This document shows, in pieces, positions 43,649 through 47,163 of a stretch of DNA of 64,000 nt (the stretch's first letter is position 1; every line of letters starts with the position of its first letter). The DNA is from Bacteroidota bacterium. GTDB lineage: Bacteria; Bacteroidota; Bacteroidia; NS11-12g; UBA955. The DNA lies in contig JAURFW010000002.1 of assembly GCA_030834125.1 (NCBI GenBank), forward strand, positions 131,817 to 195,816. Reading direction: 5' to 3'. The notes under the pieces are model-generated. The model ran no database searches. It was not told where the DNA came from and worked only from the letters and a program-made list of their open reading frames with translations. Made by a program: the position numbers and the translations under genes.

Positions 43649-45052
43649 TTGAGTTTTCCCAAATTAGAAATATTTAAGCTTTTAGCAGAAACGGCAAATG
43701 AATTAGAAATTAAGTCATATGTTGTAGGTGGCTATGTACGAGATTTATTATTAAAAATTCCGAGTAAGGATATTGATATAGTGGTTATTGGTTCTGGTGT
43801 TGATTTTGCACAGGCTTTACATCAAAAAATGGATGGGGCGTCTATTTCAGTGTTTAAAAATTTTGGCACAGCTCAAATAAAGTATGAGGATTATATTGTA
43901 GAAATAATAGGAGCTAGGAAAGAAAGTTACCGAAGGGATAGCCGAAAGCCATTAGTTGAAGATGGAACATTAGAGGATGATCAAAATAGGAGAGACTTCA
44001 CGGTTAATTCATTTTATCTAGGATTGAATTCTGATAATTATGGAGTTTTGGAAGATCCATTTGATGGAATTCAAGACCTCAATAATGGAATTATCAGAAC
44101 TAATACCGACCCTGATAAAACTTTCTCGGATGATCCATTGAGGATGTTACGGGCAATTAGATTCGCGGCTAGGTTTAATTTTACTATTGAAGAGAAAACA
44201 TGGAATGGTATATTGGATAATGCTCATAGAATTGGAATTGTGTCTCAAGAGAGAATAACCGATGAGTTGAACTCAATGATAAGAGGTGATAAACCTTCTA
44301 TTGCGTTTAAATTAATGTTTGATTCAGGCTTGTTACATTACTTTTTCCCTGAAATGGTTGAACTACAAGGAGTAGAAACTATTGACGGTAAGAGTCATAA
44401 AGATAATTTTTACCATACATTACAAGTTTTAGATCAATTATGCCAGTTATCAGAAAATATTTGGCTAAGATGGGCAGCAATTTTACATGATATAGCCAAA
44501 CCAGCTACAAAAAGATTTGATCCCAAAGTAGGTTGGACTTTTCATGGACATGAAGATCGGGGTTCACGAATGGTTAAGGGTATATTTCGCCGGTTAAGGT
44601 TACCACTTGATGAAAAGATGAAATATGTTCAGAAACTTGTAGCGATGCATTTAAGACCTATTGTTTTATCTAAAGATATAGTTACTGATAGTGCAGTGCG
44701 AAGATTAATTGTAGAGGCAGGTAATGACGTTGATGATTTATTGCTGCTTTGTCGGGCTGATATAACATCTAAAAATCAATTTAAAGTAAAAAGACATATT
44801 GAGAATCTTCAAAAAGTAGAACAGAAAATTCAAGAGGTTAGAGAAAAGGATGAACTTAGGAATTGGCAACCTGTAATTACTGGGAACCACATCAAAGGTC
44901 GTTATATGATTGTTAATCCCCGCGATATTGGAATGCTGAAACTAGAACTACGTGAAGCAATTTTATCTGGTGAAGTTAAAAATACTCTGGATGACAGTTT
45001 TAAATTTCTAGATTTATTAGCTGCGGAAAAGGGGATTGAAAGAAAGAAATAA
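43649..45052 (+). CDS. cca: CCA tRNA nucleotidyltransferase / poly(A) polymerase-family protein with an HD domain
   Basis: PolyA_pol head YVVGGYVRDLLL...KDIDIVV and a C-terminal HD region. No in-frame ATG precedes the core. A TATCTTTG -7 element at 43635-43642 predicts a leaderless TTG start at 43649 (MSFPKLEIFKLL...); the track start is the TTG at 43613. Confidence 0.8.
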   Translation: MSFPKLEIFKLLAETANELEIKSYVVGGYVRDLLLKIPSKDIDIVVIGSGVDFAQALHQKMDGASISVFKNFGTAQIKYEDYIVEIIGARKESYRRDSRKPLVEDGTLEDDQNRRDFTVNSFYLGLNSDNYGVLEDPFDGIQDLNNGIIRTNTDPDKTFSDDPLRMLRAIRFAARFNFTIEEKTWNGILDNAHRIGIVSQERITDELNSMIRGDKPSIAFKLMFDSGLLHYFFPEMVELQGVETIDGKSHKDNFYHTLQVLDQLCQLSENIWLRWAAILHDIAKPATKRFDPKVGWTFHGHEDRGSRMVKGIFRRLRLPLDEKMKYVQKLVAMHLRPIVLSKDIVTDSAVRRLIVEAGNDVDDLLLLCRADITSKNQFKVKRHIENLQKVEQKIQEVREKDELRNWQPVITGNHIKGRYMIVNPRDIGMLKLELREAILSGEVKNTLDDSFKFLDLLAAEKGIERKK

Positions 45053-45115
45053 TTATTTTTTTATTGGTTTGCAGTCTTTATTTGAAATGGTAAGTTCATT
45101 TCTTATTTTCTATCT

Positions 45116-45442
45116 CTATCTCAAATATGAAAAATCATTAGGATCAAAAACGTGCTCTTTTACATTTATAATATAACCAGTATCAACACGTTCAAATGAT
45201 TCTACAATAACATTAAATTCACACTTAATAATATGAGACAACATTTGACCTGCTTTAATATAAGGTCCTCCAGAAAGGTCTACGACAACAATTACCTCAT
45301 GATTTGTAGTTCCATCTGGATTTTTCAGCCAACCACAACGATGAAATTCAAAATTACCTTCCCAAAGAACCTTATTTGGTCCTTGTTTAGTAAATGTAAA
45401 AACATCACCATTACGATTTTCGTATTGTGCTACGTTTTCCAT
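45116..45442 (-). CDS. hypothetical protein, 108 aa
   Basis: Clean ORF with no recognisable motif, divergent from the 45660-46765 operon. Confidence 0.5.
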   Translation of the reverse strand: MENVAQYENRNGDVFTFTKQGPNKVLWEGNFEFHRCGWLKNPDGTTNHEVIVVVDLSGGPYIKAGQMLSHIIKCEFNVIVESFERVDTGYIINVKEHVFDPNDFSYLR

Positions 45443-45558
45443 TATTTTTCTATAATTAAAAAATTTCCGAAATAATAATCGGGGATTTGAAGGAATTATT
45501 TCCTTTCCAAGTTTTAACTGATTTTAATGCTTTATTATCATTCATATTATAGTTCTTA

Positions 45559-45625
45559 TTTACATGTAAAAATAATCTTGTTTACATGTAAATATAATCT
45601 TGTTTACAATGTAAATATAATCTTT
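45559..45625. repeat. three tandem 22-23 bp direct repeats, each containing the 12-bp perfect palindrome TTTACATGTAAA (candidate operator array or iterons)
   Basis: The three copies are TTTACATGTAAAAATAATCTTG, TTTACATGTAAATATAATCTTG and TTTACAATGTAAATATAATCTTT, lying head to tail 35-100 bp upstream of the ATG at 45660. Confidence 0.8.
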
Positions 45626-45659
45626 AAGTTTATTATACTTGAATAAAAAAATTGTAGCG

Positions 45660-45938
45660 ATGGATCAAATTTATAAAATCATTGAACTTAAAGTAGATGG
45701 AGGTTCACAGGAGGTTGGCTTAAGAAAAGAAACGTATAAAAATTCAAAGTGGAACAAAGCTGTAAAGGCAGCAGAGAATATTGCAATGAAAGATTTTGAA
45801 GATTTGCTAAATATACATTGTAGAGAAGATAATAATTGGCGTCTAGATTCAATTCAAACAATTCGCTACTTCTGGGGTCCAGGTGAGTATTACAAAACTG
45901 TAATTGTATTAAAGAATTTAGAGCATTTTAAATCGTAA
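45660..45938 (+). CDS. hypothetical protein, 92 aa from the ATG (the track opens at the TTG 45639)
   Basis: An ORF preceded by three tandem 22-23 bp palindrome-containing repeats; no recognisable motif. Confidence 0.5.
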   Translation: MDQIYKIIELKVDGGSQEVGLRKETYKNSKWNKAVKAAENIAMKDFEDLLNIHCREDNNWRLDSIQTIRYFWGPGEYYKTVIVLKNLEHFKS

Positions 45939-45943
45939 GTTAA

Positions 45944-46765
45944 ATGGGGAAAGAACAAATTGTTGTTGCATTAAATAATGAGCCAGAATCCAGTCCAAGT
46001 AAGTATCTTGGTGCGGAGATAGCTATAGGTACACTCACACTAGATAAGATAGCAGAACTCAAAAGTATTCTTCAAAATGGCTTACTTTTTGAAGAAATGG
46101 GAGGCCTTTGGGGTGAAACTTTTAAAGGTTCTGTCTATTTAACTGAACTGATGGATGTAAATGATGAATATCATAAAAATGGATTGATTTTTTATGAAAG
46201 CCTTTATGATAATTGCAGTGATATTAATTTATATTCAACAGAAAACTGGGCCTTTGTTCCTGAAGATAACGAGGATATGCTACCTAATCCAGAATTTAAA
46301 CCACCGGTTAAAATACAAACTAAATCTTCAGAATTTATTGTTTTGTCCATTAGAACTGAAGATCTATATTTTAAAGCTAAAGGGGAACTAAACCCAGAAA
46401 ATAAAATGGTTTTTGACGAAACGAATATAGCAAAATTTAAAATTCAAACGGGAATCGATGAATTTCATTCAATTATGTCTTCCTTTGGCTTTAGTGGTTT
46501 TAATCTTCTACACACAGTATATGCTAATGGAGTTGAATTAGAAAGAGACGAAGATGACATTGAAGAAGCATTTAATATTTACTATTCGTCGCATTTAATT
46601 TTTTCAGAAGGTAAATTAATAGCTTGGTTAGCTACAAATAATCATTCACACCATTTCCCTTTTGATTATTATGAGTCCAAAATACCTTGTATAAGTCCAT
46701 ACCTTATGGAAATGGATCCCGAAACTTATCAATTAGCAATAAATAACTTATTGGAAAACCTTTGA
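45944..46765 (+). CDS. hypothetical acidic protein, 273 aa
   Basis: Lies 5 bp downstream of the previous ORF (operon); no signal peptide, transmembrane segment or known motif. Confidence 0.5.
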   Translation: MGKEQIVVALNNEPESSPSKYLGAEIAIGTLTLDKIAELKSILQNGLLFEEMGGLWGETFKGSVYLTELMDVNDEYHKNGLIFYESLYDNCSDINLYSTENWAFVPEDNEDMLPNPEFKPPVKIQTKSSEFIVLSIRTEDLYFKAKGELNPENKMVFDETNIAKFKIQTGIDEFHSIMSSFGFSGFNLLHTVYANGVELERDEDDIEEAFNIYYSSHLIFSEGKLIAWLATNNHSHHFPFDYYESKIPCISPYLMEMDPETYQLAINNLLENL

Positions 46766-47163
46766 TATTAGAAATCTATTGATTTGTGTTCCTTATGGCG
46801 AGTTGAACCCTCAGTTTAAATTACCCCAGCCTACATTGAAGGAAAGAAAAGAGTATTTTGTATGAGACATTTTTTATTAACAAATGGTCTATCAAACACT
46901 ACTTCTCCACAAAGTATTTTCCTAATTGAACTTGGCAACTGCTGTTTTGAGTACAAAACCTGCCAAGGTTTTGGTGTTGAATATCAATGAATTAACCCAT
47001 ATATTCGATTCCGTCTGATAACTATATTAATCAATTTTTATATTGCAATTATTATTATCTGTGATAATGAATATCACTTTATAAACTAGGTTTGGAAAAA
47101 TTCTGAATAGAAAAAAGCAAAAAATCAATGATAAACATATAAAATTATTGATTTTTGCAGTGT

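Follow-up and report, generated by a model that had tools for sequence, protein, structure and literature searches.

Phage lambda has a tripartite operator, OR1-OR2-OR3, which is located between cI and cro. Adjacent dyads also occur at promoters controlled by winged-helix repressors of the BlaI/MecI/CopY type, whose boxes follow the pattern TACAnnTGTA and are often found two or three in a row, and the sites of LytTR-type response regulators are composed of 9-bp direct repeats with 12-13-bp spacers, which gives them a period of 21-22 bp. Plasmid iterons are exemplified by the contiguous 22-bp iterons of pPS10 and by the R6K gamma origin, and arrays of clustered regularly interspaced short palindromic repeats (CRISPR) combine repeats of about 24-48 bp with unique spacers of similar length. 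As for the promoters of Bacteroidota, their -7 box is preceded, at a distance of about 19-21 nt, by a TTG/TTTG element at -33. Here, we describe an array of three tandem repeats at positions 45559-45625 of a 64-kb stretch of a Bacteroidota chromosome (the whole of which is called the window below), upstream of a gene for a protein of 92 amino acids (aa). The array is real, but as a tandem repeat of a promoter region, here in a small islet of ORFan genes, it is ordinary, and we tentatively favor its interpretation as a set of operator sites for a regulator of these genes.

Structure and reality of the repeat array

Tandem Repeats Finder (TRF) places the array at 45554-45624 with a period of 22, 3.2 copies, 93% matches and a score of 119, and ranks it as the top tandem repeat of the window, in which the runner-up scores 51. 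The units measure 22, 22 and 23 bp and have exactly the sequences given in a preliminary description of this DNA (Table 1). The same description set the array apart from CRISPR, and rightly so, as its three units are contiguous, have no spacers and recur every 22 bp. Matches to the 22-bp unit at 3 mismatches were absent from 100 shuffles of the window. Five contigs from independent metagenome assemblies of the same population (JGI, ENA and Logan) are 100% identical to the window over the whole intergenic region that contains the array, so it is not an assembly artefact. The population is represented in the JGI samples 3300021960 and 3300021962 and in runs SRR7130819 and SRR7130903, and the longest contig with these genes measures 223 kb. 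Three copies are present in 6/6 assemblies, with no assembled copy-number variant, and the flanks of the array hold no degenerate fourth copy, their similarity to the unit being at the level of shuffled sequence.

Copies 1 and 2 both contain a perfect 12-bp palindrome, TTTACATGTAAA, which had likewise been noted before. The palindrome of copy 3, however, had been considered broken by a 1-nt insertion. The insertion, an extra A, is indeed present, but it falls between the half-sites TTTACA and TGTAAA and leaves both of them intact and 1 bp apart, so that the inverted repeat survives with its symmetry kept and its spacing altered. As estimated by simulation on random or real 22-mers, the chance of finding a perfect 12-bp palindrome in a 22-bp unit is about 0.8-0.9%. 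The array, with its palindromes in copies 1 and 2 and its intact half-sites in copy 3, therefore displays a dyad symmetry of the operator type that goes beyond chance (p ~0.009). Across the window, 22 perfect 12-bp palindromes of any sequence are observed and about 26 are expected by a rough estimate from base composition.

Tandem palindromes might also act through the structure that they impose on nucleic acids, either as a cruciform in DNA or as a hairpin or AUG-UAA mini-open reading frames (mini-ORFs) that tune the translation or stability of the operon mRNA. In a transcript that begins further upstream, or in DNA, copies 1 and 2 can pair into a predicted 14-bp stem with a 10-nt loop (DNA fold -11.7 kcal/mol, z -3.5; RNA fold z -2.3), and ATGTAA, a start codon immediately followed by a stop codon, is present in 3/3 copies on both strands (45564-45569, 45586-45591 and 45609-45614), which is relevant only if the array is transcribed. 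Such a hairpin is automatic for any two tandem palindromes, however, and its stem is almost entirely A-T. Furthermore, no promoter-like -7 box is found upstream of the array on the + strand. A role at the level of RNA or DNA structure is, in our judgment, improbable. Neither the gathering thresholds of Rfam nor a cutoff of E <=1 returned a known RNA family, and a 30-nt antisense-like inverted match between the array and the coding sequence of the 92-aa gene (45808-45837) is not significant (p 0.08).

Predicted promoter and putative operator sites

The array is situated in a 217-nt intergenic region between divergent genes, 116 nt away from a 108-aa gene on its left. On its right, the start codon that had been described as directly downstream is near, the exact distance to the ATG at 45660 being 34 nt. 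This ATG, rather than an in-frame TTG at 45639, is supported as the start of the 92-aa gene by the N-terminus MD(K/Q)(T/I)YKI, which all homologues of its product share. The 92-aa gene probably forms one operon with the 273-aa gene that follows it.

In flavobacteria, the -7 box has the consensus TAnnTTTG and occupies positions -12 to -5 (PMC9723704; also PMC7641319), and leaders have a median length of 24 nt and a mean length of 65 nt (PMC9723704). TAnnTTTG boxes are found near many gene starts in the genome examined here. The operon has a predicted proximal -7 box, TATACTTG, 8 nt past the end of the array, and in a homologue of the 92-aa gene from another genome (locus L008) a canonical box, TACTTTTG, and the ATG are separated by exactly this distance. 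With TATACTTG as the -7 element, transcription would start near 45646 and produce a 14-nt leader. Such a start would put the dyad centers of the three copies at about -81.5, -59.5 and -37, with copy 3 lying over the -33 region. No -33 element was found for this box, as positions -36 to -33 read TGTA.

We propose the following model for the function of the array. A 22-bp promoter-proximal element would have been triplicated in this lineage, and each copy would offer a dyad-symmetric site, made up of TTTACA and TGTAAA, to a dimeric DNA-binding protein. No neighboring gene recognisably encodes such a protein, and its gene is probably located elsewhere. The 22-bp spacing is close to two helical turns and would make all three sites face the same side of the helix, where dimers may bind cooperatively. 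Occupancy of copy 3, over the -33 region, would control the access of RNA polymerase to the operon promoter. We lean towards repression, although activation from the same positions is equally possible. The extra base of copy 3 shifts the spacing of its half-sites, and weaker or altered binding to this copy would be expected. We favor the operator interpretation because of (i) the improbable dyad, (ii) the two-turn spacing, (iii) the position of the array in a divergent region where it overlaps the predicted promoter, and (iv) the presence of a unit-like element that travels with the gene (see below). The first three of these features, and the placement of copy 3 over the predicted -33 region, are also in accord with the protein-binding operator array of the preliminary description. 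Nevertheless, three helically phased sites for a dimeric regulator are a tentative reading that falls somewhat short of being probable.

A number of observations weigh against this reading. Within the array, the spacers are conserved as fully as the palindromes, which points to a recent duplication and provides no evidence of selection on the sites. Nor was a DNA-binding domain recognised in any of the three proteins encoded next to the array, none of which is basic (isoelectric points (pI) of 5.2, 7.8 and 4.4). A scan for the palindrome detected no other site in the window at <=1 mismatch, and no regulon-wide motif, with a site upstream of other genes, emerged there. The confinement of the palindrome to the array at this threshold fits a control site for a single locus. 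There is no enrichment at <=2 mismatches (12 matches vs 11.5 expected), and the variant with a 1-bp spacing is at chance level. A full-text literature search for a bacterial regulator of TTACATGTAA returned none, the matches being primers and a yeast a1/alpha2 operator construct. Finally, no related locus with an array was found, and homologous promoters do not show sites that are conserved while spacers drift: the full 12-bp palindrome is kept neither at locus L284, which has only ACATGT, nor at loci L285 and L309.

The -7-like box that ends each unit opens a different interpretation, in which the unit, made up of an AT-rich stretch and this box, is the core of the promoter of the operon itself, with an incidental palindrome and no dedicated binding protein, and the array represents tandem copies of a weak promoter or a neutral slippage duplication. 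The triplication would then have added two or three weak upstream promoters, and expression would be raised, diversified or unaffected. The units end in TAATCTTG, TAATCTTG and TAATCTTT. The first of these sequences is one mismatch away from TAnnTTTG, and both of them, like the proximal TATACTTG, have a C where the consensus has the first T of TTTG, a resemblance that supports tandem promoters although the C itself is off consensus. Furthermore, no properly spaced -33 element exists within the repeat, where the nearest TTG is only 14 nt before each box, as opposed to about 19-21 nt, which means that the units are not complete promoters. The flanks of the array, as described above, are not degenerate copies of the unit, and the palindrome would have to be the product of a chance of only ~0.9%. 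On the other hand, the leaders predicted for the successive boxes, ~75, 53, 30 and 14 nt, would all be normal for flavobacteria (PMC9723704), and units that are identical throughout, in their spacers as well, are what a young duplication typically looks like.

The control regions of homologous genes bear on both interpretations. At locus L284, a 92-aa homologue with 59% protein identity, found in a different context, has a single unit-like element, ACATGTATAAATAAATTTTG, which lies 45 nt upstream of the ATG. When this element is aligned locally to the unit, the shuffle p is 0.003-0.004 (three independent lineages were tested), and the presence of the element upstream of the homologue suggests that the element travels with the 92-aa gene as a part of its control region. 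L284 retains only ACATGT and the AT-rich/TTTTG part of the unit, and L285 retains not even that. A unit-like stretch at L008, TGTATAAATAACTACTTTTG, ends in the canonical -7 box of the gene itself, and the L284 element ends in TTTTG. These endings, together with homologous promoters that lack a conserved palindrome, are consistent with tandem promoters. From these comparisons, the unit looks like a part of the promoter region of the 92-aa family that is single elsewhere and triplicated in this lineage. We regard tandem promoters or neutral duplication as the main alternative, doubtful on balance but to be reckoned with. It is not fully exclusive of the operator interpretation, as a duplicated unit that consists of an operator plus a box satisfies both.

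The motif was also sought in larger collections. In IMG/VR, TTTACATGTAAANNTAATC gives 16 single matches, and pairs of TTACATGTAA 10-14 nt apart occur in 18 contigs vs 8 and 20 contigs for two palindromes of matched composition that served as controls. This lack of enrichment led us to reject a motif shared with phages. The paired pattern has at least 120 matches in metagenomes, and those listed are a mixture of unrelated elements. The organism's own contigs are not among the matches listed, which therefore carry no information on other sites in this genome. Some of the loci encountered are of interest in their own right. The layout closest to that of the window array is displayed by a viral contig in which the intergenic region between two divergent genes contains two TTTACATGTAAAA sites at a distance of 22 bp (L120, 6376-6420, IMG/VR UViG_3300027901_000043), its neighboring genes being unrelated. 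A 1310-bp metagenome contig of 34% GC (guanine plus cytosine) carries about 16 copies of TTACATGTAA, some of them degenerate, with a strict 21-bp period and variable spacers (L245, 270-600; L144 is similar). Judging by this pattern, the repeats of this unrelated contig look like a real multi-site protein-binding array of the centromere or iteron kind. Many further metagenome loci (e.g. L166, L167, L171, L173, L190, L204 and L217), on contigs of 34-43% GC, contain TTACATGTAAGG-AAAAAT-CCTTACATGTAA or its variants, sometimes two per contig. With its 12-bp stem and short loop, this element, which is unrelated to the window, resembles a dispersed family of repetitive extragenic palindromic (REP)-like or terminator-like hairpins.

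The islet and the genes beside the array

Table 1. Features of the array and its surroundings in window coordinates.
Feature	Position	Strand	Details
Repeat copy 1, 22 bp	45559-45580	+	TTTACATGTAAAAATAATCTTG; palindrome TTTACATGTAAA 45559-45570; -7-like box TAATCTTG 45573-45580
Repeat copy 2, 22 bp	45581-45602	+	TTTACATGTAAATATAATCTTG; palindrome TTTACATGTAAA 45581-45592; -7-like box TAATCTTG 45595-45602
Repeat copy 3, 23 bp	45603-45625	+	TTTACAATGTAAATATAATCTTT; half-sites TTTACA/TGTAAA split by extra A (45603-45615); degenerate box TAATCTTT 45618-45625
Partial unit TCTTA, left edge of array	45554-45558	+	TRF array start 45554, 3.2 copies
Predicted proximal -7 box of 92/273-aa operon	45634-45641	+	TATACTTG; 18 nt before ATG; 8 nt past array end
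92-aa ORFan gene, first gene 3' of array	45660-45938	+	34 nt from array end to ATG
273-aa ORFan gene	45944-46765	+	starts 5 nt after 92-aa gene; very acidic product, pI 4.4
108-aa gene, divergent	45116-45442	-	family on phage contigs; 157 relatives
Lineage-specific islet, ~2.1 kb	45053-47163	n/a	three ORFans and array; inserted between CCA-adding enzyme and SerRS genes
Imperfect 25-nt direct repeat, left	45035-45059	+	21/25 identical; the pair brackets 1800 bp of islet
Imperfect 25-nt direct repeat, right	46835-46859		21/25 identical

The window is a segment of a Bacteroidota chromosome with ~35% GC, a coding fraction of 93% and housekeeping genes throughout. Its SerRS is <=70% identical to those of the retrieved GTDB species representatives, the best of which are metagenome-assembled genomes of lake Bacteroidia. 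In L038 and L039, which are the closest genomes, the gene of the CCA-adding enzyme is followed, after 60-80 nt, by the SerRS gene and then by a DinB-family gene, with flanking synteny as in the window, and L039 additionally shares the upstream ABC-transporter and membrane-protein genes. The islet that occupies this site in the window shows no homology to the L038 and L039 loci, has no matches in collections of cultured phages and plasmids, and contains no recombinase gene. The imperfect direct repeat that brackets 1800 bp of it (p ~0.01, whether shuffles or real segments serve as the control) hints at an insertion footprint, but does no more than that. A stretch of 389 nt (46766-47154), which separates the 273-aa and SerRS genes, is devoid of a convincing ORF in this 93%-coding genome. 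It matches nothing in Rfam and is not homologous to the short spacer between the CCA-adding enzyme and SerRS genes of the relatives.

The array could, in principle, be a recombination scar, that is, a functionless attachment site or a recombinase arm-type remnant at the junction of two acquired modules, one with the 108-aa gene and the other with the 92/273-aa operon. The three genes are found separately and in different contexts in other genomes, and the direct repeat around the islet is in keeping with such a history. However, the islet encodes no recombinase, the array does not coincide with the boundary of the islet, and the unit-like element of L284 accompanies the 92-aa gene, which favors a role in the promoter region. 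We assign only a slight chance to a scar.

The preliminary description had also offered iterons as an explanation. Contiguous direct repeats of 22, 22 and 23 bp in an acquired islet, next to a gene of a phage family, do have the classic anatomy of iterons, as known from pPS10 and R6K, and the array would then serve an integrated plasmid- or phage-like element, with its own initiator or ParB/ParR-like binder, as the origin of its replication or as a partition (centromere-like) site. No Rep or Par protein was found, however, and no Rep-like gene lies beside the array. DnaA boxes are at chance level in the window, and neither a box nor a cluster of them is near the array. The cumulative GC skew rises monotonically through the window without a switch. 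Again, the site is chromosomal, between two housekeeping genes, and matches no plasmid or phage. On these grounds, iterons and an origin were rejected, and we deem this the least credible of the readings considered.

A more speculative view takes the islet for a new kind of module, self-contained and horizontally mobile, with an ORFan product that would bind the units as iteron-like sites for the autoregulation or maintenance of the module. The obvious candidate for such a binder would be the 92-aa protein, and the triplication would tune dosage. This is a long shot, if a shade less so than a scar or a structural element.

The 92-aa protein has no match in Pfam, NCBIfam or PADLOC, and its PHROG match is below threshold (E 0.03). 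Six relatives were found among 5.8e9 proteins and three representatives among 1.84e9, with identities that are either 100% or <=62% and no intermediates. Its AF2 (AlphaFold) model has a pLDDT (predicted local distance difference test) of 65 and no significant PDB match, and in this low-confidence model a weak, non-significant resemblance to Alba-type nucleic-acid binders can be discerned. For the neighbors as a group, Pfam, NCBIfam, PADLOC, PHROGs, PDB profiles, two AlphaFold models and two fold searches gave nothing usable as to function, and none of the 92-aa, 108-aa and 273-aa genes belongs to a recognisable family.

Homologues of the 92-aa and 273-aa proteins are not encoded together. Their genes occur in other contexts, and no array accompanies them. 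At L008 (5660-5892), the 92-aa homologue is followed on its 3' side by 810-aa and 165-aa ORFans and then by a gene with 126-bp (42-aa) tandem repeats, neighbors that differ from those in the window, so the partners of the 92-aa gene vary between genomes. The 108-aa family comprises at least 157 uncharacterised proteins, the genes of which are found on contigs that resemble phages and at 23 viral loci of IMG/VR (loci L016, L017 and L286-L308), and the gene in the window looks like a phage-derived one that is stranded in a bacterial chromosome. Some of the viral contigs with 108-aa homologues come from the same estuary project as the organism. A link between the array and this phage-type gene was rejected, as neither the palindrome nor the unit is present upstream of its homologues (0/13 loci).

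The array matters little beyond its own locus and has no bearing on a long-standing open question. If it binds a regulator, it would offer a way into the regulation of a rare ORFan operon from an uncultured estuarine or freshwater lineage of Bacteroidota. It would also be a small example of how the duplication of a promoter region creates a multi-site operator, and this in a phylum for which the grammar of promoters and operators is still poorly charted.

The array among known systems

Comparison with the systems introduced at the outset shows partial likeness to each of several. Like the sites of LytTR-type regulators, the units are direct repeats that recur about every two helical turns and lie upstream of a promoter, but their core is a palindrome and not the LytTR consensus, they are contiguous and conserved in full, and no LytTR gene is seen nearby. 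The half-sites TACA and TGTA in an AT-rich dyad are reminiscent of BlaI/MecI/CopY boxes, a likeness that we treat as a lead and not as a test. Their spacing is 0 bp (1 bp in copy 3) instead of 2 bp, and there is no BlaI/CopY-like gene among the genes annotated around the locus. With the iterons of pPS10 and R6K, the array shares contiguous 22-bp direct repeats that are conserved over the whole unit. It differs from them in its chromosomal location, in having only three copies, in the perfect palindrome inside its units, which is untypical of iterons, and in the absence of a Rep gene, DnaA boxes and an identified AT-rich unwinding region.

The promoter elements are akin to those of Bacteroidota sigma-A promoters (PMC9723704, PMC7641319). 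Both TAATCTTG and TATACTTG match TAnnTTTG with one mismatch, and the box at L008 is equidistant from its ATG. The promoter is a predicted one, and it departs from the sigma-A pattern in the C at the first T of TTTG and in that the repeat contains no -33 element at the proper spacing.

The array is set apart from lambda OR by spacers that are repeated as faithfully as the sites, which marks it as a true tandem duplication, by the absence of a flanking gene for a helix-turn-helix repressor, by the -33/-7 type of the host's Bacteroidota promoters, and by binding that is only putative here. Its resemblance to lambda OR nevertheless extends to three dyad-symmetric sites spaced 22-24 bp from center to center in a divergent promoter region, with one site that deviates from the others and an overlap with the predicted promoter.
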